From an uncultured Gammaproteobacteria bacterium (lineage in GTDB: Bacteria; Pseudomonadota; Gammaproteobacteria; Ga0077536), in assembly GCA_903866355.1 (NCBI GenBank), contig CAIPNE010000181.1, positions 1 through 33,707 of the forward strand: a stretch of 33,707 bases of DNA, read 5' to 3'. This document shows positions 850-29,008 of this stretch, piece by piece. The notes under the pieces are model-generated. The model searched no databases and was not told where the DNA came from. It saw only the letters and a program-made list of their open reading frames with translations. The translations under genes and the position numbers were made by a program. The first letter of the stretch is position 1. Each line of letters begins with the position of its first letter.

Positions 850-2027
850 GTTGCTCGGCCCTCTACCTCAAAGTAGTGCAGGAGGAACTCCGCCAAACCA
901 AATAATTGCTCGCCACCCTCACCCGCGCTGCCCGCGAGATGCGTCAGACAGCGCACGTCACCGGCCACAACAGGCACCGTGGCCGCACCACGGCGGGTCG
1001 CGCCCATGCGCGCGGCAGCCGCGGGATGCAGGGTCGCCAGACTGCCGGCAGCACCACAGCACACGCCATGAGAAGCCGCCATCGCAGAGTTCTCAACCGT
1101 TTGCGCCAAGTGCTGCAAAATTGCCCGCGTGGGATCGACCGCAGCGCGCAGATCGCCGGGTCGGCGGGACGCACAGCTATCAAACACATGGACCACCGAG
1201 GGGCGCGTCGCGCGTGGGATGAGTTGCAAACGGGCGTCCAACAAAGCCTGCAGCAACCACTGCGGAAAGGTCAGCACGCGCTCGGCCGTCACGCCGCGCT
1301 GCCAAGCGGGCGCGCATTCCAGGCCGGAGGTCACGAGTAAGGGCGCGCGCAAACGCCCGGCCAAGGTCTGCTCAGCGTAAGCGGCGTCCTGTGGCAGGCC
1401 AGCTTCACGCAGCGGCGCGCCGCAGCAGGCGTCGTCTGCCGGTGAATAACCCACGCGCTCACCGGCCAACTGGAAAAGCCGGACGGCGGCCCGCGCTTCG
1501 GCCGGACGGGCATGTGCCGTGGCACAACCCGGGGCGTACTGCAGCGTGGCGAGCGGGCCGGCGGTGAACTCAAGCCCAGTGGCCCAAGCACTGCGTGCAG
1601 CGGCAGGCGCACCGTAGACGTTGCCCTGTTCCCGCACCCGCGTGCGTAAGGCGGCGAGTGGCGCGGGCAAATGATCTTGCGCCGCCAACATTTCGCGCAG
1701 CGCCTGACCTACCTGCGCGGGGCGCAGGCCAATCGGGCAGATGCTCTCGCAGTTGCCGCAGCCGGTGCACGAAAAAGCGCGCTCGGCCAACACCTCAAGA
1801 TTAAGCGCCTGGCCTTCCAGCAAGGCGCGGGCAGCCGCGATATAGCCGCGCCCGGAATAACTTAACGCAGGAGAGTGGTGGGTGATCGTGGCACAGACGT
1901 GCTCAATACCGCGCTCGGCCCACACCGCGTCCACGCAATAATTGCAGTCCGCGCAGTGATAGAGATCTTGGCGAAAGACTTCCAGCGCGCTGCGCTCGCC
2001 GTGCACAGCGCTATCAGGCGCGGCCAA
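846..2027 (-). CDS. GlcF-like (Fe-S)-binding oxidoreductase with cysteine-rich CCG-type domains
   Basis: 393-aa ORF. It has Cys clusters CADCNYC and CTGCGNCESICP (4Fe-4S ferredoxin-type CxxCxxCxxxCP). C-terminal Cys-rich segments (PGCATAH, DDACCGAP, FDSCASR, GVCCGAAG) fit a glycolate-oxidase GlcF / heterodisulfide-reductase-like fold. The start is ambiguous: TTG at 2027 or GTG at 2006. With the TTG start it overlaps the upstream gene by 14 bp. Confidence 0.8.
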   Translation of the reverse strand: MAAPDSAVHGERSALEVFRQDLYHCADCNYCVDAVWAERGIEHVCATITHHSPALSYSGRGYIAAARALLEGQALNLEVLAERAFSCTGCGNCESICPIGLRPAQVGQALREMLAAQDHLPAPLAALRTRVREQGNVYGAPAAARSAWATGLEFTAGPLATLQYAPGCATAHARPAEARAAVRLFQLAGERVGYSPADDACCGAPLREAGLPQDAAYAEQTLAGRLRAPLLVTSGLECAPAWQRGVTAERVLTFPQWLLQALLDARLQLIPRATRPSVVHVFDSCASRRPGDLRAAVDPTRAILQHLAQTVENSAMAASHGVCCGAAGSLATLHPAAAARMGATRRGAATVPVVAGDVRCLTHLAGSAGEGGEQLFGLAEFLLHYFEVEGRAT

Positions 2028-3456
2028 TTTTTTTCAGCCAACGCGCGACGTTGCGGCCATGCGTGGCGAGATAGGGGTCTTGGATAAATTTGTCGTAAAA
2101 CGCGGTTTCCAAGCGGTGCGCCTGCGCATAAAACCGAATGTACATCGAGGGCACGGTGCCGGGAAACTTGCCATAGGTGGCGTAAATATATTCGGCGATT
2201 TTAACCACGGCCTCCACCAGTTCCGGTTCGGGTCGAGCGGCAGTTGCTTTGATCTTGGGGTTGTCCAAAAACGGGCCAGGCGATTTGGGATCGTAGGCGC
2301 CACCTGGGCCAAACTTAAGATTAACGTAGGCCTCCACCGCGGCGCGCATGTCTTTGTGGTAGGGCGGGCAGTAGCTCTCGTAAATACCATCCAGCCCGAT
2401 GGGGTTAGGCACGCCCCACTTGGGGTCGGTTTGAAAACGGAAACCCAAGCCGGGCAAGCCTTTGGCGGCGCCAGCCCCCATCAGCGAAAAAGGACTGATC
2501 CCGGAAAAAAACCAGCCGCCCAGTCCTAGCGTCTGTAACGCCAGCACGATGTTGTGGCCCATATCGCCCATCTCTACTGCCGAGCAGGTCAGGATGTACT
2601 GCTCCATGTAAGACAGTGGATATTTTTTCTCGGGATCGAGCAGACCCTGTTTGAAAAAGGGTTCCAGATCGCCCGCCGGACGTGCGTGTTGATCGTCCCA
2701 CACGGTAAAACCCGAACCCGCCACAATGAACAAAAAGCCCATGAATTGTTCCGACACATTGGCCACCGGAATGAAAACGGTGGAGCCCGGCACGTTTGCG
2801 TTCCACGTGTTGTGGGCGCTGTAATGGGGTTCGCCGCGCGGCAATTCAATGCGTTTGTCGCTGAGCTGGCGGGTGTGTTCTTGGGCCGCGGCGATCACGC
2901 GTTCGGGTTCAGACAAGCGCTCGTGCGCCCAGTTGCCATCGGTCTTCGCATCCCGGGTGCTAACAAAATACGTGCCGCTGTCTTCGGTATAGAACAGATC
3001 CGGGCTGCCAATGCCTGCCGCCGTGGGTACGGTGCGGCCGGTATAGCGCGCAGCATAAGTGGCTAGCCCCGACTCGGCATCAGAGTAGGGGATCCCATTG
3101 TGCTGACCCGACACCCCAATTCCCGCCGCCAGCAGCATCGAGCGTTCAAAGTCATCTAGCGACGACGGCGGTTTGTCAGACTTGAACTTCAGCGGGCCAC
3201 GCGGAATTTCCATGCCCCAACCGAAGCGCCGGGAGCGCCGACCGAACAGCGCAGAGTACAAAGGAAATTCGGCCGCTTCTTTGAGCAGCGCGTTCCACTC
3301 GGACAACTGCGCCGCGCTGTACTTCGCGCTAGCAGCGCTGGGTGCGGCTTGCGCGCCGCGTACCAGTGCCGGCGCGAGCGAGGCGAGGCTCGCCAAATAG
3401 AGAAACGCACGGCGCGATAAAGACGCGGACTTGGCGGGCAGATCGTCGAGGCTCAT
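2014..3456 (-). CDS. Tat-signal protein with putative nitroreductase/SagB-like fold, function unknown
   Basis: 480-aa ORF. The N-terminus SLSRRAFLYLASLASLAPALVRGAQA-AP is a twin-arginine motif plus h-region plus AxA cleavage site. The internal segments PSSLDDFERSMLLAAGIGVSG and GHNIVLALQTLGLGGWFFSG resemble nitroreductase-superfamily signatures. That fold assignment is by eye only. Confidence 0.8.
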   Translation of the reverse strand: MSLDDLPAKSASLSRRAFLYLASLASLAPALVRGAQAAPSAASAKYSAAQLSEWNALLKEAAEFPLYSALFGRRSRRFGWGMEIPRGPLKFKSDKPPSSLDDFERSMLLAAGIGVSGQHNGIPYSDAESGLATYAARYTGRTVPTAAGIGSPDLFYTEDSGTYFVSTRDAKTDGNWAHERLSEPERVIAAAQEHTRQLSDKRIELPRGEPHYSAHNTWNANVPGSTVFIPVANVSEQFMGFLFIVAGSGFTVWDDQHARPAGDLEPFFKQGLLDPEKKYPLSYMEQYILTCSAVEMGDMGHNIVLALQTLGLGGWFFSGISPFSLMGAGAAKGLPGLGFRFQTDPKWGVPNPIGLDGIYESYCPPYHKDMRAAVEAYVNLKFGPGGAYDPKSPGPFLDNPKIKATAARPEPELVEAVVKIAEYIYATYGKFPGTVPSMYIRFYAQAHRLETAFYDKFIQDPYLATHGRNVARWLKKIGRA

Positions 3457-3608: not shown

Positions 3609-4409
3609 ATGAGCACATTTTTTGCTGACATCGAGGCCTTCGTCGCCACCATCCCTGATGGGGCCAAGCTCGCCATACCACCGGACTATAGCGGTGTGGC
3701 CTTGGCCGCAACCCGCGCGCTGGTCCGGCGCAATATCCGCGGACTACATCTCATTGCAGTCCCGCAAGCAGGTCTACAGGCCGATGTTCTCATCGGCGCA
3801 GGTTGTGTGGCAACGCTCGAAGCCGCTGGTATCAACTTGGGGGAGTATGGCCTAGCGCCACGTTTTACCGCGGCGGTATTGGCCGGTTCCATCGTGATGC
3901 GCGACGCCACCTGCCCGGCGATACACGCGGGGCTCCAAGCCGCTGAGAAAGGCATTCCCTTCCTGCCGCTACGGGGCATTTTGGGTTCCGACCTGTTACG
4001 CGTGCGTCCCGATTGGCGGGTCATCGACAACCCGTTTGGGATCAATGATCCCATCGTGCTAATCCCCGCCATCCGCCCGGATATCGCGCTGTTTCACGCC
4101 CGTGTGGCTGACCGTCACGGCAACGTCTGGGTCGGCGTGCGGCGCGAATTAATGCTCATGGCACATGCCTCGGCAAAGACTTATGTGACCGTCGAAACAG
4201 TGCAAACAGACAATCTATTGGCGGATCCCGCGCTCGCGGCGGGCACGATCCCCGCTTTGTATATCGACGCCATCCAACACGCGCCCGGCGGCATGCGACC
4301 ACTGGGCTTTGAGGACGAAACCGCGCACTACGCCTCACTGGCCAACTACGCCAGTTTGGCCCAGACCGACGCCGGCTTTATGGACTGGCTACGCACGTGG
4401 TTGGCATGA
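3609..4409 (+). CDS. CoA-transferase-fold subunit A-like protein (GctA/IpdA-like), pair 1
   Basis: 266 aa. The motifs AAEKGIPFLPLRGILGSDL, ALFHARVADRHGNVWV and IDAIQHAPGG parallel the paralog at 10607..11491 and glutaconate-CoA-transferase/IpdA-type alpha subunits. Its TGA overlaps the ATG of the next gene. Confidence 0.85.
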   Translation: MSTFFADIEAFVATIPDGAKLAIPPDYSGVALAATRALVRRNIRGLHLIAVPQAGLQADVLIGAGCVATLEAAGINLGEYGLAPRFTAAVLAGSIVMRDATCPAIHAGLQAAEKGIPFLPLRGILGSDLLRVRPDWRVIDNPFGINDPIVLIPAIRPDIALFHARVADRHGNVWVGVRRELMLMAHASAKTYVTVETVQTDNLLADPALAAGTIPALYIDAIQHAPGGMRPLGFEDETAHYASLANYASLAQTDAGFMDWLRTWLA

Positions 4410-5131
4410 GCATGCCGGCGTACACCAACGAAGAACTCATGGCGAGTGTGATGGCCCGGCTGCTGCGCGGCCTGCGCCATGTGGCCGTCGGCGCGCTGTC
4501 ACCGTTGCCCGCCACCGCAGCCCTGCTGGCCGGCGCGCTAGACCCTAGTCTGCGGGTGACCATACTCGGCGCGCGCGCGCATCAGTGTTTCACCGATGGT
4601 GGACGCGAATTATTCGACTGCGCAGCACAAGGTCGAATCGATGCGTTTTTCTTGAGCGGCGTGCAAATCGACGGCAATGCCAACATCAACTTAGTGGGAC
4701 TGGGCGATTATGCCCACCCCGTCCGGCGCTTCCCCGGCAGCTTTGGTTCCGCCTATCTCTACCATTTGATACCCAAGGTCATTTTGTTTCGCCAGGAACA
4801 CACGCCCAGAATCTTCGTCCCCAAAGTGGATTTCATCAGCGCCGCTGGCACCTCGCCGGCGCACGAATATCGCCCGGGAGGCCCGCGTCATTTGGTGACC
4901 GGGCGGGCGGAATTCGCCTTTGCCGAAGGGCGTTTCCAGTTGGTGAGCGTGCATGGCGATGAAACCGTGGCCTCGGTGCGGGCCGCCACCGGCTTTGATT
5001 TTTTAAGCCCAGAGACGGTACCGATGACCTCCGCACCGAGCGCCGCCGAACTCGTCGCGCTGCGCGGCTACGCTCGAACGCAGGTGCAGGAGATTTATCC
5101 GGCCTTCGCCGCGCACGCCTTCGGCGGGTAA
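4406..5131 (+). CDS. CoA-transferase-fold subunit B-like protein (IpdB-like), pair 1
   Basis: The ORF runs 4397..5131. I prefer ATG 4406, which gives an ATGA overlap with the subunit A stop. The motifs GVQIDGNANINLVG and HTPRIFVPKVDFISAAG are shared with the paralog at 9809..10597. There is no (S)ENG motif. Confidence 0.85.
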   Translation: MSMPAYTNEELMASVMARLLRGLRHVAVGALSPLPATAALLAGALDPSLRVTILGARAHQCFTDGGRELFDCAAQGRIDAFFLSGVQIDGNANINLVGLGDYAHPVRRFPGSFGSAYLYHLIPKVILFRQEHTPRIFVPKVDFISAAGTSPAHEYRPGGPRHLVTGRAEFAFAEGRFQLVSVHGDETVASVRAATGFDFLSPETVPMTSAPSAAELVALRGYARTQVQEIYPAFAAHAFGG

Positions 5132-5149
5132 AACATCCACTCGCCGCGC

Positions 5150-6178
5150 TTAAGCGGCGCCGTTTAGGTCCCGCTCTACCAGCAGGCAACGCGCCCGCTC
5201 AAACATGCGTGACAAACACAGGGCCATGTTTTCCCAAATGGGATCGTGACGTTGCCCCTTGCGGTGCAGTTTCACATTGAGGCAACCGATGGACGCCAGC
5301 CGATAACCCGCAAACGCTTGGTACCAAGGAATATCCGGGTAGTGCTGCCCCCGGCCGGATTCATAAATCGCCTGGATCTCGGTGGGCGTGGGCGGATGAA
5401 CGGGCTGCCATTGGGGCACCCAATTGAGCGGATCGGCGGCCATCATCAGCCAGCCAATATCCAGCAACTGAGCGCCAATGCCGGAGAGTTCCCAGTCGAT
5501 AACCCCGGTCAGTTGCCCGTTCTCATACAGCATATTGCCGGGCTGGTAATCCCCGTGAAAAATGCCCACGGGCGTGCCCACCGGCAACGACGCCAGCAGC
5601 AGGCGCTCGACTTCGCGGGCTTGGTCGATCCAGTGTGGCTCGGGCGCGTGGAGATAAATTTTCTGCCAGCGAGTGACTTGCTCGTGCAGCGGCTCGGGGG
5701 CTTGCCATTCAGACAAGTGAGCCTGCCAATCAAACTCGTGGAAATCCACCAAAGCCTCGACGCATTGTCGCCATAAGGGTGCTACGGCGGCCGGCGTGCG
5801 GTCAAAAGCCGGGTCCGGATCCCACACAAAAAATACCCGCCCAGGCAAGCGGTCCATCACCAGATAGGGCACGCCAAACCAGTCTTCGTTCTCGCTCGCG
5901 TAGGGTACCGACGGCACCGGCAAACCCGCCGCGTGCATCGCCCGCAGGAGTGGGGCCTGTCGATACACATCGGTGTTGCCGCGCCGGGCCACCCCTTTGG
6001 GCGGCAGCTTCAGGACATAGCGTCCGGCATTGTTCGACTCACCGCGACGGCGGGTCTCAAAGAGGAAAGTAAGTCCCGCGTGGCCGTCTGAATCCTGCAC
6101 GTCGGCCAGTGCTAGTTCCGCGCCAATTTCGGCTTGGATGAAGGCGGCGAGACTGGCCCGTAGTTCTGCAGTAATCAT
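5150..6178 (-). CDS. Phosphotransferase-family protein (APH/choline-kinase fold; the type often found next to acyl-CoA metabolism genes)
   Basis: The ORF is 5150..6289. I chose the internal start MITAELRASLAAF (ATG 6178) because the longer form would overlap the upstream gene. It carries the Brenner-type motif IFHGDYQPGNMLY followed by VIDWELSG. Confidence 0.8.
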   Translation of the reverse strand: MITAELRASLAAFIQAEIGAELALADVQDSDGHAGLTFLFETRRRGESNNAGRYVLKLPPKGVARRGNTDVYRQAPLLRAMHAAGLPVPSVPYASENEDWFGVPYLVMDRLPGRVFFVWDPDPAFDRTPAAVAPLWRQCVEALVDFHEFDWQAHLSEWQAPEPLHEQVTRWQKIYLHAPEPHWIDQAREVERLLLASLPVGTPVGIFHGDYQPGNMLYENGQLTGVIDWELSGIGAQLLDIGWLMMAADPLNWVPQWQPVHPPTPTEIQAIYESGRGQHYPDIPWYQAFAGYRLASIGCLNVKLHRKGQRHDPIWENMALCLSRMFERARCLLVERDLNGAA

Positions 6179-6203
6179 CGTAGGTGACCGTGGGTTACGC
6201 CGC

Positions 6204-6743
6204 TCACTCGCGGCTCTGGCTAAATAATTCAGGAGCGGCCTGCCGCACTTTGGCGTCGGTCGTCCAATAGCGTTTGGCCCAGATGCCATCGTAAGGCTCC
6301 GTGCCCACCGGCATCCGCCAAGTTCGAACTTCGGCCTGCGCCAGCGTCACCGAACACAGCGCACGCGGCTGGTCGTCCGTACCATCGACATAAGCGCTGG
6401 CGTCGTGGTGCGGTAAGTAGCGCCCGGCGATGCGGCGATAGCGATCACGCCAGAGATCATCGCAGCCAATTTCGTGCACGATTTCGGCACGGCCGCGCAC
6501 AATCACCTTGCGATAGGGCATCACGGGTTCATCGATGCACAGCGCAACGCGCGGTTCGCGGCGCAGATGCACCAGCCACACGGAGTGTTGGCGTGGCGTG
6601 AACCAAATCCGGCCTTCTTCATAGAGAAACCAGATCGGGCACAAATGCGGCCCCCCTTCGGCATCTAGCGTGGCAATGTCCATGATGAAACCCGGCGTTT
6701 CCGCCAGAAAAGTTTCTTGTTCGACTAAGCTGAGCTTGGGCAT
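6204..6743 (-). CDS. Pyridoxamine 5'-phosphate oxidase (PPOX)-family flavin/deazaflavin-binding protein
   Basis: The ORF is 6204..6860. The start MPKLSLVEQETF at 6743 is preceded by GGAGA 8 nt upstream. The sequence DIATLDAEGGPHLCPIWFLYEEGRIWFTP...VALCIDE...YRKVIVRGRAEIV fits a split-barrel PPOX pattern. Confidence 0.75.
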   Translation of the reverse strand: MPKLSLVEQETFLAETPGFIMDIATLDAEGGPHLCPIWFLYEEGRIWFTPRQHSVWLVHLRREPRVALCIDEPVMPYRKVIVRGRAEIVHEIGCDDLWRDRYRRIAGRYLPHHDASAYVDGTDDQPRALCSVTLAQAEVRTWRMPVGTEPYDGIWAKRYWTTDAKVRQAAPELFSQSRE

Positions 6744-6886
6744 GGGGCAGTCTCCACGTTGCAGCAGCACCGGGTGGCAGACGCCGCGGATCGCAAAGCG
6801 TCTCACCGGGGCGTGGCGCGCTGCCTGACGACGCCCTCGACCAGTGCAATAATGCCTCAATCCGAACCCACAGGAAGTACCCCGCG

Positions 6887-7330
6887 ATGATCGACCCCTG
6901 CCACATCGGTTATGTCTCGCCGCCGTTTACCACTGAGGTCGAGCGGGGACGTCTGCGCTTCTTCGCCAAAGCAATCGGCGAAACCGACCCCGTCTACCTC
7001 GAAGAAGACGCCGCCCACGCCGCCGGCTACCCGGGGCTGCCCGTCCCTCCGACGTTTTTGTTTTGTTTAGAGATGGACCGGCCCGCACCCTATGGCTGGT
7101 TCGACGACTTGGGCATCGAACTGCCCAAAGTGCTGCACGGTGAACAAAGCTTCGTTTATCACGCCATGGCATATGCCGGTGATTGCTTGACGTTCGCCGC
7201 CCGCGTGCGCGACATCTACAGCAAAAAGGGCGGCCTGCTGGAGTTTGTCGTGCAGGACAACCAAATTTCCAACCAACGAGGCGAGTTAATCGCCGAATTT
7301 ACCCGCACACTGGTGATTCGACATGGTTAA
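6887..7330 (+). CDS. MaoC_N/FAS1-like hotdog subunit (non-catalytic partner of a heteromeric enoyl-CoA hydratase)
   Basis: 147 aa. FAKAIGETDPVYLEEDAAHAAG aligns with the hydratase-2 motif but lacks its His. It overlaps the next gene by 8 bp (ATGGTTAA). Confidence 0.8.
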   Translation: MIDPCHIGYVSPPFTTEVERGRLRFFAKAIGETDPVYLEEDAAHAAGYPGLPVPPTFLFCLEMDRPAPYGWFDDLGIELPKVLHGEQSFVYHAMAYAGDCLTFAARVRDIYSKKGGLLEFVVQDNQISNQRGELIAEFTRTLVIRHG

Positions 7331-7763
7331 AACCCTCACCCCGTTTGACTACACCACCGCCCAGCCCGGTGACGCTTGGCCGGCGCTCGCCATGCCGCCC
7401 GTCGCGCGGCTGACCTTGGCCCTGTACTGCGGCGCTTCGGGCGATCACAACCCATTGCACGTCGATAGCGACTTTGCGCGCGCCGCGGGTTTGGGCGACG
7501 TGATTGCCCACGGCATGTTATCGATGGGCTATATGGGCCGCACGCTCACCCAACAGGTGCCGCTAGGGGCACTACGAGAATTCTCTACGCGCTTTTTGGC
7601 CATGACCCGCATTGGTGATCAAATAACCTGCACCGCACAGGTCATTGCGCGCTTTAACGACGCCCAAGGGATGCCCTGCTTACGGGTTGCCGTGAGCGCC
7701 GCAGGCCACAACGGCGAAGTCAAAGCTGCCGGCGAAGCCATCATCGCCCTACCGTCGGGCTAA
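7323..7763 (+). CDS. MaoC-like (R)-specific enoyl-CoA hydratase, catalytic hotdog subunit
   Basis: 146 aa. The hydratase-2 motif YCGASGDHNPLHVDSDFARAAG is intact, including the catalytic Asp and His. Confidence 0.88.
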   Translation: MVKTLTPFDYTTAQPGDAWPALAMPPVARLTLALYCGASGDHNPLHVDSDFARAAGLGDVIAHGMLSMGYMGRTLTQQVPLGALREFSTRFLAMTRIGDQITCTAQVIARFNDAQGMPCLRVAVSAAGHNGEVKAAGEAIIALPSG

Positions 7764-7808
7764 GCTCGGCGCCAACTCCTCCACTCACACCACATAGGAT
7801 AAGCAAGC

Positions 7809-8951
7809 ATGGGTCCACTCGCAGGCGTCACTATCATCGAACTGGCCGGGATCGGGCCCGCCCCTTTTGCCTCCATGCTGCTGGCTGATATGGGCGCGAA
7901 TATCATCCGTATCGACCGCGCCCGCGGCGACGAGCCGGGCATCCGTCTGCCCTACCGCCTGAACGTCATGAATCGCGGACGGCGCTCGTTGTCGGTCAAC
8001 CTAAAATCCCCCGCCGGCATCGCCACGGTACTTAAACTGGTGGAGCAAGCCGATGCCTTTATCGAAGGCTTTCGACCCGGCGTCACCGAGCGTCTGGGAC
8101 TAGGCCCGGACGCGTGTTTAGCGCGCAACCCGCGGCTCATTTATGGGCGCATGACCGGCTATGGCCAAGATGGTCCCATGGCCAGCGTGGCGGGACATGA
8201 CATCAACTACATCGCTTTGTCCGGTGTGCTCTCGATGATTGGCGAACGCGACCGCAAGCCGGTAGCGCCGCTAAATTTGGTGGGTGATTTTGGCGGCGGC
8301 GGGATGTTCCTGGCATTCGGCGTGGTGTGCGGCATTCTGGAAGCACGCGCTTCGGGGAAAGGGCAGGTCATCGACTGCGCCATGGTGGAGGGCGCGGCTA
8401 TGCTCGCCAATATCTTTAATAGCTTTCGCGCCTTGGGCCAACTCGAGCCACAGCGCGGCGCCAATGTGTTGGACGGTGGCGCGCATTTTTATGACACCTA
8501 CGAAACCCGCGATGGCGGCTATGTGGCGGTCGGCGCAATCGAACCGCAGTTCTATAAACGGCTGCTCGAATTGATGGGACTCCCGCAAGCAGAATTTGAA
8601 CCGCAAATGGACAAAACCCGCTGGCAGGCGTGGAAAGTCCGTTTTACCGACGTCTTCAAATCAAAAACACGTGCCGAATGGGGCAGCATCCTGGAACACG
8701 AAGAAGCCTGCGCCATGCCCATTCTGAGCATCGATGAAGCGGCCGCGCACCCGCACAACCGCGCACGCGGCACTTTTGTTGAATTTGCCGGTGTAGAGCA
8801 GGCCGCTCCTGCTCCGCGCTTTAGCCGTACGCCGGGCGAACTCAAGCAACCACCCCCGGAACCCGGCGAACACACCGATGCGGTGTTAACAGAGTTTGGC
8901 TTTAGTGCGGAGGAAATCGCCACCCTGCGCGCCACACTCGCGGTGAGCTAG
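7809..8951 (+). CDS. CaiB/BaiF family III CoA-transferase, alpha-methylacyl-CoA racemase-like
   Basis: 380 aa. The N-terminus GPLAGVTIIELAGIGPAPFASMLLADMGANIIRIDR and the segments GHDINYIALSG and GDFGGGG are typical of the family III CoA-transferase/racemase family. Confidence 0.88.
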   Translation: MGPLAGVTIIELAGIGPAPFASMLLADMGANIIRIDRARGDEPGIRLPYRLNVMNRGRRSLSVNLKSPAGIATVLKLVEQADAFIEGFRPGVTERLGLGPDACLARNPRLIYGRMTGYGQDGPMASVAGHDINYIALSGVLSMIGERDRKPVAPLNLVGDFGGGGMFLAFGVVCGILEARASGKGQVIDCAMVEGAAMLANIFNSFRALGQLEPQRGANVLDGGAHFYDTYETRDGGYVAVGAIEPQFYKRLLELMGLPQAEFEPQMDKTRWQAWKVRFTDVFKSKTRAEWGSILEHEEACAMPILSIDEAAAHPHNRARGTFVEFAGVEQAAPAPRFSRTPGELKQPPPEPGEHTDAVLTEFGFSAEEIATLRATLAVS

Positions 8952-8959
8952 CCCCACCC

Positions 8960-9715
8960 GTGATGAGCGTCATGGACTTTGTTTGGGTGGCCTGTGCGGC
9001 GTTTGCCGCCGGCATGGTCAATGCCCTCGCCGGTGGCGGGACGCTCATCACCTTCCCGGTGCTGACTGCCATCGGTTTGCCCGCCGTGATGGCCAACGTC
9101 ACCAATGCGGTAGCGCTTTGTCCGGGTTATTTCGGCGGCGCTTGGGCGCAGCGGCGGGACTTGGCTGGGCAAAGTCGCCGCCTGTGGATACTGCTACCAC
9201 TGGGTGCACTGGGCGGGATGCTGGGCGCCTGGCTATTGCTGATCTCGGGCGAGCGGCTTTTTCGCTCGCTCGTGCCGTGGCTTATCCTGTTAGCGTCCGC
9301 GCTGCTAGCCGCGCAAGGACCGCTGCGCCGGTGGCTGATTGCCCGCGGTGGCCGGATCAGCAACTCACCCGGTACCGCCGCCATCCCCATTGGGATCGCG
9401 GCGGTCTATGGCGGCTACTTTGGCGCGGGTTTGGGGGTCGTGATGCTCGCCACGTTAGGGGTGACGCTAGAAGACACCCTCAACCGACTCAACGCGGTCA
9501 AGCAAGTGCTGTCTTGCGTGATCAACCTCTCCGCCGCGTTGTTCTTTCTAAACTCCAACCAAATACATTGGCCGGTGGCCGCCGTGATGGCCGTGGGCGC
9601 GCTCTTGGGCGGCAGCTTAGGGGGACGCTGGGCGCGGGTCATTGCACCGACACGACTGCGTTACTTGGTGGTGATTATCGGCGTGGGCGTGGGCATTTTT
9701 TATCTGCTGAAGTAG
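8960..9715 (+). CDS. TSUP (TauE/SafE) family membrane permease
   Basis: 251 aa and polytopic hydrophobic. The segments AAFAAGMVNALAGGGTLITFPVLTAIGLP and a repeated second-half motif YGGYFGAGLGVVM are typical of the family. The start could be GTG 8960 or ATG 8963. Confidence 0.85.
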   Translation: MMSVMDFVWVACAAFAAGMVNALAGGGTLITFPVLTAIGLPAVMANVTNAVALCPGYFGGAWAQRRDLAGQSRRLWILLPLGALGGMLGAWLLLISGERLFRSLVPWLILLASALLAAQGPLRRWLIARGGRISNSPGTAAIPIGIAAVYGGYFGAGLGVVMLATLGVTLEDTLNRLNAVKQVLSCVINLSAALFFLNSNQIHWPVAAVMAVGALLGGSLGGRWARVIAPTRLRYLVVIIGVGVGIFYLLK

Positions 9716-9808
9716 GCGCTCTAGCGTTCCACCCCGCTTGGTACAACGGCGCTCGGCTGAGTTTGCGCCGCGCGGCCGCCGCCACCCGACCTTGAAGACG
9801 TCAAACAA

Positions 9809-10597
9809 TTAGCCCCGCAAAGCGCCCGCCACATCCACTTGGGTGCGCAACACGTGTAGGTCTTCCAACGTGGGCCACGCCGTGGTTGGGACCTGCGCGG
9901 GGATCACCAACTCAAAGCCAGTTTGGGCTTGCACTTGCGCCAGGGTGACGCCCGGGTGCAACGACACCAGCCGCAGACGTTTTTCCTCCGGGGTAAAATC
10001 CATGATGCACAGCGGCGTAATGCAATATTTAGGACCGCCGCCCGGGAGTCCTAACTGGGTCCGCGCGTCCGCACCACCGTTACCCCATCCCACCGTGCTG
10101 ATGAAGTCACAGCGGGGTACAAAAATGCGCGGCGTGTGGGTGTTCAACACGATGTAATAGCGCCCCACATGGGTGGTGAGCGTGGGCGTGCCGACCGAAC
10201 CCGGGCCACGAAATTTTAGGCGCCGAAAATCCTGCCCCACGCCAATCAAGTTCGTATTGCCGTGAGGATCTACCTGCAAACCTCCCACGAAAAAAACACG
10301 CCGATGCCAATCCTTAACCTGATCAAAACGGTGGCCACGGTCGCTGAAGGATTCCGCCCAGCGCACCACTCGAGAATCCCAGCCAAAGGCGGGCATGGGC
10401 AGGTGATCGAGGTGATGAACATTCATCCGTGCGCCCAGAAAAATGAGCTCCATGTTAGGGCCATGCGTGAGCTGCGCGAGGCGCACCGCGGCCTCGGGAA
10501 TCGGCAGCGCAATACCGACTTGCAGTTCCTCGCCGTCGTTTAAATCGCGGGCCAGAAAACAGGCCAGAAGTTCAGCCGTAGAACAGCACGGGGTCAT
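9809..10597 (-). CDS. CoA-transferase-fold subunit B-like protein (IpdB-like), pair 2
   Basis: 262 aa. It carries GGLQVDPHGNTNLIGVG, HTPRIFVPRCDFISTVG and SLHPGVTLAQVQAQTGFEL, and has no (S)ENG motif. AGGGA sits 6 nt upstream of the ATG. It starts 9 nt after the stop of subunit A. Confidence 0.85.
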   Translation of the reverse strand: MTPCCSTAELLACFLARDLNDGEELQVGIALPIPEAAVRLAQLTHGPNMELIFLGARMNVHHLDHLPMPAFGWDSRVVRWAESFSDRGHRFDQVKDWHRRVFFVGGLQVDPHGNTNLIGVGQDFRRLKFRGPGSVGTPTLTTHVGRYYIVLNTHTPRIFVPRCDFISTVGWGNGGADARTQLGLPGGGPKYCITPLCIMDFTPEEKRLRLVSLHPGVTLAQVQAQTGFELVIPAQVPTTAWPTLEDLHVLRTQVDVAGALRG

Positions 10598-10606
10598 GGG
10601 GCGTCC

Positions 10607-11491
10607 CTAGTATTCGTGCAACGCGAGAAGACGCTTGAGGCCCACCCGCTCGAGATAATCCGCGTGGGTCGCGGGCTCATGGCAGTAACGGTTGAGGAAT
10701 TCCGCCAAGCCCGCGGGCTGGTCGCGCTCGGCAGCCGCCGTCGCCACTGCGAGGTAATCGGCGAGAAACGCACTGTCCTGCACATACCATCCTCGGCTGT
10801 ACCACGGATGTGCGCCCCACGGCAGCCGCACCACGGCGTCGGCACGCCCAATCGTGGTGGCCCAGGGCGCGGCACGAATAGCCTCGTTGGGCACTATTTT
10901 TTCGACCTGCACGATGCAGTGCGTGGCCGCACGTTGGAGAAAGAGGTCGATCCAGCCCGGGCCACCCTGATGCTGCACGTTGCCATAAACATCCGCCACG
11001 GAGGCATGGAGCAATGCCACATCGGGTTTTATCGCCGGCACCGCGAGCAGGGTTTCGCCGTTGATGGGGTCGCGAATGAGTTTTAAATCAGGATTTATCT
11101 CCGGCAACGAGGTGCCCACGCCGCCGCGCCAGGGCAGAAAGGGCAGGCCTTTGCCGGCCGCTTCGAGACCGCTGGTGAGGATACCTTCCTCACATTCCCA
11201 GACCTCGATTTCGCCGCGCTCTGCCGCCCGCCGAAAACACGGGGCCACCGGCACGCCAAAACCGCCGCCGGCATAGTAGCTGATGGTCTTGCGGACACAG
11301 CCGCCGGCAATGAGGAGATCGAGCGATAACCCACTCGCGATGACCGTGAGATCGCGCAACTGTTGGCGGATAACTTGCCGCACCAAAGCCATCGGCGTGG
11401 GCTCGCCAATGGCGATCGTCATGCCGTGGTCGAGCATCGCCACCGCCTGCGCTTCGGTGTGCAGACGCGAAGTGCGTACACCTGTGTTCAT
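10607..11491 (-). CDS. CoA-transferase-fold subunit A-like protein (IpdA-like), pair 2
   Basis: The ORF extends to GTG 11515. I prefer ATG 11491 (MNTGVRTSRL), but the start is uncertain. It has WECEEGILTSGLEAAGKGLPFLPWRGGVGTS, ALLHASVADVYGNVQH and ADAVVRLPWGAHP. Confidence 0.85.
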   Translation of the reverse strand: MNTGVRTSRLHTEAQAVAMLDHGMTIAIGEPTPMALVRQVIRQQLRDLTVIASGLSLDLLIAGGCVRKTISYYAGGGFGVPVAPCFRRAAERGEIEVWECEEGILTSGLEAAGKGLPFLPWRGGVGTSLPEINPDLKLIRDPINGETLLAVPAIKPDVALLHASVADVYGNVQHQGGPGWIDLFLQRAATHCIVQVEKIVPNEAIRAAPWATTIGRADAVVRLPWGAHPWYSRGWYVQDSAFLADYLAVATAAAERDQPAGLAEFLNRYCHEPATHADYLERVGLKRLLALHEY

Positions 11492-11591
11492 GGTTGCTCT
11501 GGGGTAGACTGGCACATACTGACTTTATGCCACGATCTGCCTCGCGTGGTAAGCCGCCGTTGCGCAGCCGCACCCGACAGGAAGCCCGCAC

Positions 11592-11891
11592 ATGACCATC
11601 CGCGTAATACTCGACATCCCCGCAAGCCCCGCCACCCGCGAGGCGGTGTTGGCCTGTTTGAAAGAGGCGCTACCCACTACCCGCGCCTACGCGGGCTGTG
11701 AAGCACTGGAACTCTTGGTCAATCAAGATGATCTTGGCAACGTGGTGGTCTACGAGCAATGGACGTCGCGTGCGCATTACGACGCCTATCGCGCCTTCCG
11801 CGCCGAAAGCGGATTTTCTGCCGCGTTCCGCGCCTTGTTTGCCGAGCCACCGATCGTGCGGGTGTTGGATACAGAACACGTCTACCCCTGA
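11592..11891 (+). CDS. Antibiotic-biosynthesis-monooxygenase (ABM) domain protein
   Basis: 99 aa. The pattern CEALELLVNQDDLGNVVVYEQWTSRAHYDAYRAF is the typical ABM ferredoxin-like pattern. AGGAAG lies 8 nt upstream of the ATG. Confidence 0.8.
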   Translation: MTIRVILDIPASPATREAVLACLKEALPTTRAYAGCEALELLVNQDDLGNVVVYEQWTSRAHYDAYRAFRAESGFSAAFRALFAEPPIVRVLDTEHVYP

Positions 11892-13275: not shown

Positions 13276-14895
13276 GTGTCCGATTTTCAGTTGAATTTGA
13301 AACGCTTGATCGAGCGTCCCGAGCGCTACTTTCCCCGCAACGAAATTGTCTCTCGGCAAGACGATGGCTCGCTGTTTCGCTATACCTATCGCGAGTACTG
13401 CGCGCGCGTACGCCGCTTGGCCAGCGCCTTGGGGCGGTTGGGCCTAAAGCATGGCGAACGCGTGGCCACGTTGAGCTGGAACACCCACCAGCATCTAGAG
13501 TTGTATTTCGCCGTGCCGTGCAGTGGTCGGGTCTTGCACACGGCTAATCTGCGCTTGTCTGATGAACATCTCGCCTATTCGATGAATCACGTTGAAGACG
13601 TGGCCGTTTTTTTCTCGCCCGATCTGCTGGGTCAACTAGAAACCATCGCCCCGCTGCTCAAGCACGTACGGGCGTACGTCATGCTGGCGGACCAAGTGCC
13701 CACGGATTCCACCCTCAGCCCGCTGTATGCGTACGAAGACCTAATCGCCGGCGGTGATCCCGGTTTCGAATACCCGGAAATAGACGAAAACGCGCCCGCC
13801 TCCATCTGCTTTACCTCCGCCACCACCGGCAACCCCAAAGGCGTCGCCTATACGCATCGCGGGCTTTATCTGCATTCGCAGGTGATTTGTAACGTCGATA
13901 CGATGGCGGTGTCGGAAAAAGACACCCTGTTGCCCATCGCGCCCATGTTCCATGTGAACTCTTGGGGCGTACCGTTTGCCGGGGTCTGGATGGGTTCAAA
14001 ATTCGTCTTTCCGGGCCAGCGGCCACACGCAGCCGATCTGCTGCAACTGGTTCAAGACGAGCGCGTAACGTTCACCTTTGGCGCAGTGACCGTGGGCATC
14101 GACCTGATGACGTTATTGACAACTCAGCCCTACGACATCTCCAGTCTGCGGGCACTGATGTTGGGCGGTTCGGCCACCCCGCCGGCCGTGATGAAGTTCT
14201 TCCAGGAACAGCATCACGTGCCAATTTTTACCGCGTGGGGCTCTACCGAATGCGCCCCCATCGCCACAGCGGTGTGCATCAAGCGCGACCAGACCGATCT
14301 GGATCTCGACGGCGAGATTGCGATTCGCGCGCGCCAAGGCATTCCCGTGCCCGGGGTCGATCTGTGCGTGCTCGACGATGAAGGCCGACAGATTCCGTGG
14401 GATGACCGGGCGATAGGCGAAGTGCGGGTGCGCGGCCCCTGGATCGCCACCACTTATATCGATGAGCCGCGTAGCCGGGAAAGTTTTATCGAGGGCTGGT
14501 GGTGCAGTGGCGATATTGCGAGCGTGAATGAAGACGGCGTGATGAAACTCGTGGACCGCGCCAAGGACTTGATCAAATCCGGTGGCGAGTGGATTTCATC
14601 GGTCGATCTGGAAAATACGCTCATCGCCCATCCGGCCGTGCGCGAAGCCATGGTGGTCGGACGTCCGCACGTTAAATGGATCGAGCGACCCATCGCTTTC
14701 TTGGTTGGCGATCCGTCCGTGCCCCGCCCCAGCGCCGCGGCGCTAGGCGCACACCTGAGTGAAAACGGGATCGCCAAATGGTGGCTGCCGGATGAATTCA
14801 TCTTTCTGGACGCGCTCCCCAAGACTGGCGTCGGCAAGTTCGACAAGAAATTAATGCGCGAGAAAATGGACGAGTACCTAGCGAAAGCGTGCTGA
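13276..14895 (+). CDS. AMP-dependent acyl-CoA synthetase (fatty-acid/medium-long-chain CoA ligase)
   Basis: 539 aa with a GTG start, preceded by AAGGAA 7 nt upstream. It has the AMP-binding motif FTSATTGNPKGVAY and the C-terminal segments DRAKDLIKSGGEWISS and LPKTGVGKFDKK. An AT-rich 54-bp spacer lies upstream. Confidence 0.9.
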   Translation: MSDFQLNLKRLIERPERYFPRNEIVSRQDDGSLFRYTYREYCARVRRLASALGRLGLKHGERVATLSWNTHQHLELYFAVPCSGRVLHTANLRLSDEHLAYSMNHVEDVAVFFSPDLLGQLETIAPLLKHVRAYVMLADQVPTDSTLSPLYAYEDLIAGGDPGFEYPEIDENAPASICFTSATTGNPKGVAYTHRGLYLHSQVICNVDTMAVSEKDTLLPIAPMFHVNSWGVPFAGVWMGSKFVFPGQRPHAADLLQLVQDERVTFTFGAVTVGIDLMTLLTTQPYDISSLRALMLGGSATPPAVMKFFQEQHHVPIFTAWGSTECAPIATAVCIKRDQTDLDLDGEIAIRARQGIPVPGVDLCVLDDEGRQIPWDDRAIGEVRVRGPWIATTYIDEPRSRESFIEGWWCSGDIASVNEDGVMKLVDRAKDLIKSGGEWISSVDLENTLIAHPAVREAMVVGRPHVKWIERPIAFLVGDPSVPRPSAAALGAHLSENGIAKWWLPDEFIFLDALPKTGVGKFDKKLMREKMDEYLAKAC

Positions 14896-15810: not shown

Positions 15811-16881
15811 CTACCGGAACGCCGGCATGATCTCGTTGGCAAATTGGTCAATGGTGGCGTCTGCATCTAGGATTGGCTGTACCGCCACCTGATGCACGCC
15901 GGCCGCCTGCATCTGCCGGATGGACTCGATAATTTCTTCCTTCGTGCCAACTAGCGTAGTCGCGCGCATGATTTTCTCGGTCATTAGCGCTTCATGTTCT
16001 GGTCGCAGTTTCTGCAAATAGCCGCTGTAGAGCTTCAGATGACGCGTTTCAATGGGTGACTCGGGATCTTTGTACACATTGTTGAACGCCATAATTTCAT
16101 CGCGTAGGTCGGCGGGCAGCAGGTCCGGATCGTGGTGGGTGGAGAGCGCAAAAATATTGCTGCTGGAGGCCACCATGGGGCCCACCGCCTCGCGCACGGC
16201 GCGGGTTTCAATGTCCTTCGCGTTTTGCGTGAGATAGAACGCCGTCATCGACAAAATGTAGATGGACTCGGGATCACGGCCGGCCCGGCGCGCGCCTTCT
16301 TTCACGTTGTCCACCATCCACTTCACGATGGAGGGATGAACGGCGCCGAAAAGAATCACCCCATCGGCAATCTCACCCGCCATCTGGGCCACTTTTGGCC
16401 CGCTCGCGGCGATGTAAATCGGGATGTGGTCTTTAATATTGATGTAACCCATGTCTGGGTTAAGAAATTTGATCTTGCGGTGGCGCGAACCTTCCGAGTA
16501 ATCCGTGACTTCATCCTTGAACAGCCCTTGGCAGACCTCGATGTGCTCGCGGAGTTCCTCTAACTTGGCCGCCGGCATGCCCAGCGTCCGGCGCGTGGTG
16601 TTACCGGTACCAATGCCGAGTACGGCGCGACCCGGTGCAATTTGATTGATGGTCGCCATACCACAGGCGGTTAGCGGCGCAATACGCGACTTCGGGTTGG
16701 TGACGCCCGGCCCGAGAATGATTTTGTTAGTGCCCGCCGCACACAGCGCTAATGAAGCATAGACCTCACTGCCCAGCATCTGGGTGTCATAAAGCCAGCC
16801 GTGCGAATAGCCACGGTCTTCTGCGTGTTTTACTTGCGGCGTGACCTGACACGAACCCATGAAAACAAAACCAAAATCCAT
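15811..16881 (-). CDS. LLM-class (luciferase-like) flavin/F420-dependent oxidoreductase
   Basis: The ORF is 15811..17040. The start MDFGFVFMG at 16881 is preceded by GGAGAG. The sequence AEDRGYSHGWLYDTQMLGSEVYASLALCAA...GPGVTNP...GIGTGN fits a TIM-barrel LLM pattern. GC is lower than the flanks: one hand-counted 60-nt line gave about 50%. Confidence 0.85.
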   Translation of the reverse strand: MDFGFVFMGSCQVTPQVKHAEDRGYSHGWLYDTQMLGSEVYASLALCAAGTNKIILGPGVTNPKSRIAPLTACGMATINQIAPGRAVLGIGTGNTTRRTLGMPAAKLEELREHIEVCQGLFKDEVTDYSEGSRHRKIKFLNPDMGYINIKDHIPIYIAASGPKVAQMAGEIADGVILFGAVHPSIVKWMVDNVKEGARRAGRDPESIYILSMTAFYLTQNAKDIETRAVREAVGPMVASSSNIFALSTHHDPDLLPADLRDEIMAFNNVYKDPESPIETRHLKLYSGYLQKLRPEHEALMTEKIMRATTLVGTKEEIIESIRQMQAAGVHQVAVQPILDADATIDQFANEIMPAFR

Positions 16882-17077
16882 CACACACTCTCCGGGTTTA
16901 ATAATGTCGAATAGCTTAGGTAATTTCTCAGAATTGTCGTGGATGTTTTTGGCCGACACAACCGTTTCATCCCGCGCGGGGTGGCCAAACGCGGCCCACG
17001 CAACCACCATTCTGAGGTTCTTTGGGGTGCCCCCGTGCAAAGGGAACCCATTGACGACAACGATTTAAAACAAAACG

Positions 17078-17698
17078 CTAACGCTTCTCACAGGCAAAAG
17101 TGGTAAAGCACCAATCACTGTCAATGACGTGTATTTTTGCAAAACCAATCGTTTTAAACGCATCTAAATAATATTGAACATCATTGATGAACATGATGTT
17201 AGCCACGCTGGCCTGCTTTTGCTTTATCTCTTCCTCTGACACGCCGCGCGCTCGTTTGTAGTCGTGGTAGAAATTAATGGCCAGCGGATCAAGTGAAGTC
17301 TTCTCACTAATGACGGCAATGCCACCCGGCGCGAGGTTATCAAAGATAGACTGCAAATAAGTTGCTTTATCTCTGATGAAATGGAGAGTCCAGTTAATCA
17401 ACACCACATTGTAGGGACCGGCCGGCAGTTGGTCGCTACAGGTTAGCGTGGCGATGTTGGGCGGGCACTTATCGAGCATAACCTGGCTGTTATCCACCCC
17501 GTGCAAATTAACAAAGCCATTTTCATGCAGGCGAATCAGGGTTTCGCCAACCGCGCAACCGACATCAATTATTTTCGCCGACTCACCATACAGTTTGCAT
17601 ATCTCAACTGATTTTTTGATCACGTTTTCATAGTTTGGAATATGCTGCCTTGCATGCGCTGCAAATGTCTTTGCAACGTTTTCGTCGAACTCCCACAT
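17078..17698 (-). CDS. CmoA-family class I SAM-dependent methyltransferase-fold protein (orphan, low GC)
   Basis: The ORF is 17078..17725. The start MWEFDENVAKTF at 17698 is preceded by GGAGAG 7 nt upstream. A by-eye alignment to E. coli CmoA as I remember it gives these matches: WEFDENVAKTF..IPNYENVI, IIDVGCAVGE, VDNSQVMLDKC, VLINWTLHFI, LAPGGIAVISEK, YHDYKRARGVSEEEIKQKQASVANIM. Two hand-counted 60-nt lines gave about 37% GC, against about 62% in the adjacent ABC gene. Confidence 0.85.
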   Translation of the reverse strand: MWEFDENVAKTFAAHARQHIPNYENVIKKSVEICKLYGESAKIIDVGCAVGETLIRLHENGFVNLHGVDNSQVMLDKCPPNIATLTCSDQLPAGPYNVVLINWTLHFIRDKATYLQSIFDNLAPGGIAVISEKTSLDPLAINFYHDYKRARGVSEEEIKQKQASVANIMFINDVQYYLDAFKTIGFAKIHVIDSDWCFTTFACEKR

Positions 17699-17759
17699 AG
17701 TCTTCTCTCCACTTATTGACAGCAACGGTAGACGGAAACCTAGTCGCTGATAAAACCCT

Positions 17760-17773
17760 TGTGATATGTCACA
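17760..17773. promoter_or_regulatory. Short palindrome TGTGA-tatg-TCACA upstream of the methyltransferase gene
   Basis: The 5-bp arms are separated by 4 nt. The site lies 62-75 nt upstream of the 17698 start on the minus strand. Confidence 0.2.
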
Positions 17774-17803
17774 GGCACTCGGGTGAAATTTTCAAGCCAT
17801 CTC

Positions 17804-24634: not shown

Positions 24635-24636
24635 GG

Positions 24637-25023
24637 TTAGAGTTGCTCCGGCGGACGCCTAGTACGGGCTGGACGTTGCGCACCGCTGGCCACCGGCGTG
24701 ACGTTTACGCCTTGGGCGAGACGGGTGCGGACTTCGCGCAGTTCAACCTGCACGGCGGCGAGCGCATCTTCCACCTGCCCCATGCGGTCGCCAAGGTCGA
24801 GAATGTCTTGGCGCGAAGGCAAGTTGAGATTGGCTAAGTATTGCGCCATCGATTCACTGAACATCCGGTGCGTGTGCAGCGCCTCCTGCATGTAGCGCCC
24901 CATACCTTTGGAGAAACGCTCGTCACCCATGATATCGGTGAGCGACTGACTCCACGCTTTCTCAGATTTCACGAACCATTCCCGCCATAAACGCACGGGG
25001 TTGAGTTGGTCATCGTCTGTCAT
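24637..25023 (-). CDS. Short PHA synthase partner subunit, PhaR(class IV)/PhaE-like
   Basis: The ORF is 24637..25074. The start MTDDDQLNP at 25023 is preceded by AAGGAG 7 nt upstream. WREWFVKSEKAWSQSLTDIMGDERFSKGMGRYMQ...YLANLNLPSRQDILDLGDRMGQVEDAL resembles Bacillus PhaR and the PhaE C-terminal region, by eye. It sits immediately upstream of phaC. Confidence 0.65.
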   Translation of the reverse strand: MTDDDQLNPVRLWREWFVKSEKAWSQSLTDIMGDERFSKGMGRYMQEALHTHRMFSESMAQYLANLNLPSRQDILDLGDRMGQVEDALAAVQVELREVRTRLAQGVNVTPVASGAQRPARTRRPPEQL

Positions 25024-25885: not shown

Positions 25886-25965
25886 CGCGTCTCACTAGAG
25901 AGTCTGCTGGAAACCACCTGTTGCGCCACCGTGAAGGGCTCGCCGGAGGTTCCAACAGCGTCGGT

Positions 25966-28907: not shown

Positions 28908-28945
28908 GGGTCGTTCCTCAGCTTGCGGCCTGCGGGGGCTAAGAT

Positions 28946-28961
28946 TTAGTCTACACACTAA
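28946..28961. promoter_or_regulatory. Palindrome TTAGT-ctacac-ACTAA in the GntR/LLM divergent promoter (candidate GntR operator)
   Basis: The 5-bp arms lie between the divergent starts at 28907 (-) and 29009 (+). The GT...AC core is compatible with FadR-subfamily operators. Confidence 0.25.
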
Positions 28962-29008
28962 TATATCAATGCGGGCCTAGCACGGGCCAGAAAACAGGAA
29001 GTTCCGTC

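Follow-up and report, generated by a model that had tools for sequence, protein, structure and literature searches.

Are two neighbouring gene pairs with the fold of class I CoA-transferases still transferases when the beta subunit has lost its catalytic glutamate, and what might they do instead? The question is raised by a 33,707-nucleotide stretch of DNA from an uncultured gammaproteobacterium (contig CAIPNE010000181.1 of assembly GCA_903866355.1; the whole stretch is called the window here), in which two such heterodimers are encoded within 8 kb. Pair 1 lies on the forward strand and consists of an alpha gene at 3609-4409 (266 amino acids, aa) and a beta gene at 4406-5131 (241 aa from the ATG at 4406, in an open reading frame, ORF, that is open from a GTG at 4397). 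Pair 2 lies on the reverse strand, with its alpha ORF at 10607-11515 (302 aa) and its beta gene at 9809-10597 (262 aa). In class I CoA-transferases a glutamate of the beta subunit (Glu54 in GctB; the Glu of the SENG motif in AtoA) forms the acyl-anhydride and thioester intermediates. A preliminary description of the window had proposed that both pairs lack this residue and resemble IpdAB, a hydrolase of steroid catabolism, rather than true CoA-transferases. We found that the glutamate is missing throughout both beta families and that most likely neither pair is a transferase. By analogy with characterised relatives, pair 2 is probably a hydro-lyase or hydrolase in the style of IpdAB that acts on a non-steroid acyl-CoA, and pair 1 is probably a cysteine-assisted lyase or decarboxylase.

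Loss of the canonical beta-subunit glutamate

All four ORFs score above the cut-off of the Pfam family CoA_trans (PF01144), and the four subunits match chains of the solved GctAB, IpdAB and AibAB structures with E values of 1e-12 to 4e-33, far beyond chance. In NCBIfam no model, and none specific to them, lies above its cut-off for any of the four subunits. The family alignments drew on 80 loci from genomes and 80 from metagenomes and included the reference chains; labels such as L001 and L007 denote the related loci compared, and labels such as P0271 denote related proteins. The column of the catalytic glutamate was placed by phmmer, by MAFFT with the references and by profile-profile alignment with hhalign.

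In pair 2 beta, Glu54 of GctB (in IIVESG) and Cys56 of AibB both align with the Leu of LIFLGARM, which is Leu54 (codon 10436-10438, reverse strand). The same column falls on Leu57 of pair 1 beta, numbered from 4397 (codon 4565-4567, forward strand), and hhalign of the two beta families places VTILGARA of pair 1 over LIFLGARM of pair 2 with a probability of 100. The column is occupied by Leu in 55 and Ile in one of the 56 pair 1 betas, and by Leu in 47 and Phe in 27 of the 74 pair 2 betas, so that Leu, Phe or Ile is found in all 130 sequences (130/130). Neither hhalign nor MAFFT places a glutamate at the SENG-equivalent position of either beta family. One phmmer alignment of pair 1 beta with AibB was shifted about 13 residues upstream at its N-terminal edge and was rejected, as the GxxSPL anchor, MAFFT and hhalign all lead to VTILGARA; the alternative column from the shifted alignment reads ALLAG and is also devoid of Glu.

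The loss of the beta glutamate is a property of both families and not a local mutation. Because the residue is replaced by Leu in both pairs, neither is able to run the classical ping-pong CoA transfer. On this point the preliminary description was correct, and the segments that it quoted (VTILGARA, LIFLGARM, WECEEGIL and SLHPGVT) are all present. Its beta-subunit block GG(L/V)Q(V/I)D..GN.N needs a small amendment: the GxQxD..GN.N core is kept in both pairs, but pair 1 reads SGVQIDGNANINL and not GG.Q.D.

Two enzymes of this fold that have lost the glutamate are characterised, and literature searches returned no CoA-transferase-fold enzyme without it beyond these two. In IpdAB, which carries Gly57-beta in its place, no CoA-transferase activity was detected (PMC5380842). 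AibAB decarboxylates 3-methylglutaconyl-CoA; its Cys56-beta replaces the glutamate and is the proposed proton donor, with Glu72-beta acting as a proton relay (PMC7756340).

The alpha-subunit glutamate of pair 2

The alpha subunit of pair 2 belongs to a family with the motif WEC[E/D]EG (PF01144, 3.5e-26). Its homologues are 290-294 aa long, in agreement with a probable start at Met9 that would give a gene at 10607-11491 and a protein of 294 aa. An exact-sequence look-up with the 302-aa form returned no match, probably because the real start is Met9. The alpha stop and the beta start are separated by a 9-nt spacer. Among chains in the Protein Data Bank (PDB), the alpha subunit is matched best by IpdA (6CON_A, 3.7e-33; 6CO6_A, 6e-31), followed by AibA (9e-27) and GctA (4e-25), and the beta subunit by GctB (1POI_B, 1.3e-21) and IpdB (6CON_B, 3.9e-17).

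Glu110 of pair 2 alpha (Glu102 in the 294-aa form; codon 11186-11188, reverse strand) aligns with Glu105 of IpdA, with WECEEG lying under REMDEG, and this column holds Glu in 81 of 81 family members, inside the invariant WEC[E/D]EG. It is also the residue changed in PDB entry 6COJ, titled 'IpdAB E105A COCHEA-CoA complex', where 6COJ_A reads REMDAG and 6CO6_A reads REMDEG; on the basis of such entry titles we take Glu105 to be catalytic in IpdA. The correspondence suggested earlier between the two glutamates is borne out by these data, and so is the SLHPGVT segment shared by the two beta subunits, which in pair 2 aligns with slhpgvt of both IpdB chains. Because an invariant glutamate stands at the place of IpdA Glu105, pair 2 most likely works like IpdAB.

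This arrangement reaches well beyond the two enzymes. An exhaustive search with pair 2 alpha gave 2344 clusters (50% identity) at E<=1e-3, and Glu occupies the alpha column in 91 of the 131 nearest full-length cluster representatives, which were analysed. These representatives also include single-chain alpha-beta fusions of 540-590 aa (P0271, P0316, P0319, P0328, P0333 and P0359), all six of which lack the beta glutamate. On the strength of these two observations, the combination of an alpha glutamate with no beta glutamate is a broad class, of which IpdAB is the only characterised member. The pair 2 family itself is found, at 64-98% identity, across Gammaproteobacteria, Binatia, Tectimicrobiota/Entotheonella and Methylomirabilota.

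Pair 2 is nevertheless not an orthologue of IpdAB/ScdL1L2. Its identity to IpdAB is 35-37% for alpha and 28-33% for beta, whereas a calibrating pair on a plasmid of Novosphingobium sp. ES2-1 reaches 50% (alpha) and 44% (beta) and keeps the segments LELDEGMF and MMTDGEAY. The TDGEA motif of IpdB is absent from pair 2. In a rough neighbour-joining (NJ) tree of alpha subunits, pair 2, IpdA, pair 1 (a Cys clade), AibA and GctA (an N/Q/H clade) are all separate. Because pair 2 falls below the identities of the Novosphingobium orthologue, these comparisons place it outside the IpdAB orthogroup.

An invariant cysteine in pair 1

Pair 1 alpha has a Gct-like CoA-transferase fold and belongs to a family with the motif D-x-T-C-P. 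The ATG of its partner (4406) and the alpha stop share an ATGA overlap, and the start at 4406 is matched by the beta homologue in L001, which is called at 241 aa. The nearest solved chains are those of AibAB: the top PDB match is AibA for alpha (5MZW_A, 1.2e-25, with IpdA at about 1e-18 to 5e-19) and AibB for beta (about 1e-12, with GctB at 5e-12). An alignment-based AlphaFold2 (AF2) model of the alpha subunit, with a mean predicted local distance difference test (pLDDT) score of 95.5 (39 in a single-sequence run), gave AibA, GctA and IpdA as top Foldseek matches at template modelling (TM) scores of 0.84-0.90, with 5MZW in ranks 1-3.

At the column of IpdA Glu105, pair 1 alpha has Cys102-Pro103 (Cys102 codon 3912-3914, forward strand) in the motif D-[A/S]-T-C-P. 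The cysteine occurs without exception in the family (71 of 71) and stays invariant when relatives of 28-34% identity are added to the alignment. In the AF2 model Cys102 lies in the first turn, at the N-terminus of helix 102-114. The family spans phyla at 50-97% identity and, like that of pair 2, has many invariant polar residues.

Pairwise identities among pair 1, pair 2, IpdAB, AibAB and GctAB all fall between 24 and 40%, and the best beta match of each pair is the other pair (32%). The two pairs are ancient paralogues, anciently diverged heterodimers of the glutaconate-CoA-transferase-like branch within the class I CoA-transferase fold. The label 'IpdAB-like rather than true CoA-transferases' is apt for pair 2 as a mechanistic analogy; it fails for pair 1, which has Cys-Pro in place of the alpha glutamate and AibA/AibB as its nearest solved relatives, and the IpdAB family itself includes neither pair.

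Genomic context of the two pairs

The genes on either side of each pair lie on the opposite strand, and each pair is on this account its own bicistronic unit. Divergent from pair 1 are a gene for an iron-sulfur (Fe-S)/CCG protein, GlcF-like, at 846-2027 and a gene for a 480-aa protein unmatched in Pfam and NCBIfam at 2014-3456, both on the reverse strand and both kept in relatives. The 480-aa ORF has a twin-arginine-like N-terminus (SRRAFLYLASLA...); it is found at 75-82% identity in several relatives and is absent in L169. Convergent with pair 1, also on the reverse strand, are an APH-family kinase gene (5150 to about 6178; PF01636) and a gene for a PPOX-class flavoprotein (6204 to about 6743; PF01243), both syntenic in relatives. 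These are followed on the forward strand by genes for a two-subunit MaoC/hot-dog (R)-enoyl-CoA hydratase (6887-7330 and 7323-7763; PF13452 and PF01575; syntenic in L088, L094, L168 and L169), a family III CoA-transferase (7809-8951; PF02515, 4e-91; syntenic with pair 1) and, as the last gene of the set, a TauE/SafE-family anion permease, for sulfite or sulfonate (8960-9715; PF01925, 3e-41; likewise syntenic).

In relatives at 68-75% identity the conserved set runs from FAD_binding_4, Fe-S/CCG and the 480-aa gene, the last not always present, through pair 1 and the APH and PPOX genes to the MaoC pair, the family III CoA-transferase and TauE, the FAD_binding_4 gene lying further upstream of the Fe-S/CCG gene. 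All-against-all clusters of neighbouring ORFs were noisy, since antisense ORFs in high-GC DNA also cluster, and only clusters confirmed by Pfam were used. Pair-1-like genes of 50-58% identity, whose alpha subunits keep the DxTCP motif, also have a family III CoA-transferase gene directly 3' of them in the cultured bacteria Paracoccus denitrificans PD1222, Cereibacter sphaeroides KD131, Sagittula, Pseudosulfitobacter and Diaphorobacter. Further recurrent neighbours of such genes encode short-chain dehydrogenases/reductases (SDR), Iso_dh, HpcH/HpaI and aldehyde dehydrogenase proteins and a split thiamine pyrophosphate (TPP) enzyme. The enzyme encoded at 7809-8951 is probably the maker of the acyl-CoA used by pair 1.

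The surroundings of pair 2 are of a different kind. Its homologues always have alpha ahead of beta and usually form a stand-alone unit among unrelated genes. In the window an ABM-fold protein gene (11592-11891, forward strand; PF03992) and a cytochrome P450 gene (12001-13221, forward strand; PF00067) lie divergent from pair 2, and the ABM-fold gene is the only recurrent neighbour, within a gammaproteobacterial group (L001, L007-L011, L016 and L067). At the level of pair 2 alpha, the window shares 98% identity with a freshwater metagenome-assembled genome (MAG) contig and 94% with Gammaproteobacteria bacterium Baikal-deep-G146.

It had been considered unusual that two such pairs should lie within 8 kb. 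The proximity is real in this window, but it is neither a conserved arrangement nor unique. In relatives at 68-75% identity the pair 1 cluster is present and pair 2 is missing from it, with Host_attach, radical-SAM and Memo/AMMECR1 genes between TauE and the acyl-CoA synthetase; in that same lineage pair 2 lies elsewhere, as in L010. Because these relatives have the pair 1 cluster without pair 2, we regard the closeness of the pairs, which is confined to the nearest relatives, as an accident of gene order in this lineage and not as a conserved system. Another case of proximity is plasmid p5 of Azospirillum argentinense (L179), where two pairs with an alpha Glu and no beta Glu (3-2946 and 7992-9754) lie 5 kb apart. 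The same locus carries a family III CoA-transferase, a LacI regulator and a sugar ABC transporter, a context that hints at a role of such pairs in sugar-acid catabolism.

Some loci with pair-2-like genes show peculiarities of their own. In a subset of Binatia/'delta' MAGs (L049, L071, L077-L079 and L083-L086) the beta gene begins some 700 bp downstream of its usual place; in L084 the gap between alpha and beta is filled by a gene for a 207-aa multi-pass membrane protein (8914-9537), and a divergent crotonase-like gene lies upstream. Several MAG records (L007, CAMAXW010000001.1; L017, L049, L050 and others) are titled 'Klebsiella pneumoniae' or 'Enterobacteriaceae', whereas their gene content is that of freshwater gammaproteobacterial or Binatia-like MAGs, and the titles look mislabelled.

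Other genes in the window

An acyl-CoA synthetase gene (13276-14895, forward strand) has a 3-(methylthio)propionyl-CoA ligase (DmdB) model as its top NCBIfam match, scoring 539 bits where the cut-off is 822, and passes that of the generic PRK06187 ligase subfamily; the window, L007 and L169 have the gene, and L001 and L008 lack it. The region 16000-18000 has a GC content of 0.52 compared with about 0.60 elsewhere. The window and L007 contain an S-adenosylmethionine (SAM)-methyltransferase gene (17078-17725, reverse strand) that L001 and L008 lack between their ABC transporter and luciferase-like genes. This pattern suggests that the methyltransferase region is a recent insertion. At 23519-26400, on the reverse strand, a gene for a class III PhaC-like polyhydroxyalkanoate (PHA) synthase that scores below the TIGR01836 cut-off precedes small phasin-like ORFs and a further alpha/beta hydrolase.

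The end of the window (28179-33605) carries an aromatic meta-cleavage set that is unrelated to either pair. It comprises a GntR regulator, a luciferase-like monooxygenase, an HpaB-type hydroxylase (30344-31795), an MhpC-like hydrolase (31792-32664) and an MhpB-type LigB dioxygenase, which lies above the cut-off of NCBIfam NF009910 and whose real start is probably near 32661. A steroid reading of the hydroxylase, hydrolase and dioxygenase genes was considered and rejected, as they match the HpaB, MhpC and MhpB types.

Possible functions and alternative explanations

The account that we consider best is that both pairs are non-transferase heterodimers, pair 2 working in the style of IpdAB and pair 1 with the aid of its cysteine, and that the two lie close together by chance; taken as a whole, we give it slightly less than an even chance. 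Pair 2 would be expressed as a self-contained two-gene unit and would bind an acyl-CoA, with alpha Glu110 as the general base, as proposed for IpdAB. It would then add water, cleave a C-C bond beside the thioester, or both, in a hydration or a retro-Claisen-type hydrolysis. Pair 1 most likely acts on an acyl-CoA that the neighbouring family III CoA-transferase provides, perhaps before or after the MaoC hydratase has acted on it. The chemistry would, as in AibAB, be an enolate-type elimination or a decarboxylation, for which the helix-capping Cys102 would donate or accept the proton.

Several observations weigh against this account. An alpha-subunit Glu or Cys could in principle serve real CoA transfer. 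Cys56 of AibB is replaced by Leu57 in pair 1, so that an AibAB-like mechanism would be an analogy and not an identity, and in neither pair 1 beta nor pair 2 beta is there an acidic residue aligned with Glu72 of AibB. The placement of Cys102 relative to bound CoA is taken from the alignment to IpdA. A family III CoA-transferase is found at only 11 of the 47 pair-1-like loci with enough downstream DNA, and pair 2 occurs in varied contexts that say almost nothing about its pathway.

The first of these points leads to a different explanation, namely that one or both pairs are true CoA-transferases whose nucleophile has moved to the alpha subunit, to Glu110 in pair 2 and possibly to Cys102 in pair 1. 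The fold and the GxQxD..GN.N core are kept, the invariant alpha residue lies by homology in the acyl pocket, and both pairs are annotated everywhere as CoA transferases. We consider this unlikely all the same. The only characterised enzyme with the alpha glutamate is IpdAB, in which transferase activity was not detected, and the separate family III CoA-transferase that recurs beside pair-1-like genes would make a second transferase redundant. In addition, a literature search gave no precedent for a Cys or an alpha-Glu nucleophile in this fold.

A more specific proposal for pair 1 starts from the genes around it: pair 1 may be a lyase that frees sulfite or sulfinate from a sulfo- or sulfino-acyl-CoA made by the family III CoA-transferase, with TauE exporting the sulfite. 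Close to pair-1-like genes, organosulfur genes turn up repeatedly and in independent settings. The window and its syntenic relatives carry TauE; L006 has TauE together with adenosine 5'-phosphosulfate (APS) reductase (AprAB) and ATP sulfurylase (Sat); Diaphorobacter has cysteine dioxygenase and 3-sulfinopropanoyl-CoA desulfinase; Paracoccus has a rhodanese and a molybdenum (Mo)-oxidoreductase; and L003 has a split TPP enzyme of the sulfopyruvate-decarboxylase (ComDE-like) type. The acyl-CoA synthetase of the window, with its below-cut-off match to the 3-(methylthio)propionyl-CoA ligase model, would also be in keeping with such a role. However, the associations with organosulfur genes are loose, permeases of the TauE family are common and have no specificity for sulfite, and many pair-1-like loci have no sulfur genes. 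Literature searches found no desulfonase or sulfo-acyl-CoA lyase of the CoA-transferase fold, and the proposal is a long shot. In a wider and likewise improbable form of the idea, pair 1 would be a third catalytic solution within the fold, its invariant alpha Cys at the start of a helix standing in for both the beta Glu of the transferases and the alpha Glu of IpdA. The family would then consist of hitherto unrecognised acyl-CoA lyases that work with a family III CoA-transferase and free sulfite, sulfinate or CO2 from small sulfo- or carboxy-acyl-CoAs; if true, this would amount to a new CoA-dependent route of desulfonation in freshwater and marine bacteria.

The explanation nearest to the preliminary description is that both pairs are ring-opening hydrolases of the IpdAB/ScdL1L2 type in steroid C/D-ring catabolism at the hexahydroindanone-propanoate (HIP) stage. 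IpdAB is encoded by Rv3551/Rv3552 and also occurs in Rhodococcus jostii RHA1, its counterpart in Comamonas is ScdL1L2, and the enzyme hydrolyses ring C of COCHEA-CoA. Its genes keep the company of other HIP genes, including echA20, ipdC, ipdF, fadA6, fadE30-32 and fadD3. The absence of the beta Glu from both pairs, the alpha Glu of pair 2 with IpdA as its top PDB match, and SLHPGVT in its beta subunit all fit this reading. Against it stand the cysteine of pair 1 alpha, the sub-orthologue identity of pair 2 and its separate NJ clade. The 33.7-kb window contains no thiolase, crotonase, acyl-CoA dehydrogenase, IpdC-type/FabK-like reductase, KstD, Ksh or Hsa genes, no HIP-pathway gene is consistently present at the related loci, and pair 2 stands alone among unrelated genes in most genomes. 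A steroid role for both pairs is accordingly very improbable.

Finally, that the pairs are decayed, non-catalytic relics of CoA-transferases, as the loss of the canonical residue might suggest, is hardly credible in view of their intact frames with tightly coupled translation of alpha and beta, the cross-phylum identities and many invariant polar residues given above, the thousands of homologues, and the activity of the characterised precedents without a beta Glu (IpdAB and AibAB). Judged from the sequences, this strong conservation is evidence that both families are functional enzymes.

The current annotation of both families as 'CoA transferase' or 'glutaconate CoA-transferase' is almost certainly wrong as far as the classical mechanism is concerned. 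The pair 2 family keeps the IpdA-type glutamate outside steroid catabolism and is found widely among uncultured Binatia, Tectimicrobiota and Gammaproteobacteria. The pair 1 family, with its invariant Cys-Pro, has cultured members that include P. denitrificans PD1222 and C. sphaeroides KD131. Such cultured homologues make function testable, and the trio of alpha, beta and family III CoA-transferase provides a handle on the substrate.

Comparison with known systems

Of the known systems, GctAB of Acidaminococcus fermentans (PDB 1POI) and the AtoDA/SCOT-type enzymes share with both pairs the fold, the subunit organisation and the GGxQxD..GNxN beta core, and differ in having the catalytic beta glutamate where both pairs have Leu.

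AibAB of Myxococcus xanthus (PDB 5MZW) is the closest solved relative of both pair 1 subunits, at 34% identity for alpha and 27% for beta, and offers an analogy to pair 1 as a non-transferase in which the canonical glutamate has been replaced. The replacement differs: AibAB has Cys56 of AibB at the glutamate position, whereas pair 1 has Leu57 there and carries its Cys on the alpha subunit, in a column where AibA has a Gly. The window has none of the aib-type neighbours (AibC reductase, HMG-CoA synthase or methylglutaconyl-CoA hydratase) and has a MaoC-type hydratase pair instead.

IpdAB resembles both pairs in its Gct-like alpha/beta CoA-transferase fold with a beta subunit that lacks the catalytic Glu. 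With pair 2 it also shares the Glu105 equivalent, set in an x-E-x-[DE]-E-G motif, and the C-terminal SLHPGVT of the beta subunit, and the two are set apart by identity, clade and the TDGEA motif. From pair 1 it is more distant (28-29% identity for alpha, 26-27% for beta), with Glu-Gly in IpdA where pair 1 has Cys-Pro. The re-use of the CoA-transferase fold beyond CoA transfer is already known from the hydrolase IpdAB and the decarboxylase AibAB. What the window adds is two more large and strongly conserved families of the re-used fold, which extend this known theme and do not constitute a new kind of system.

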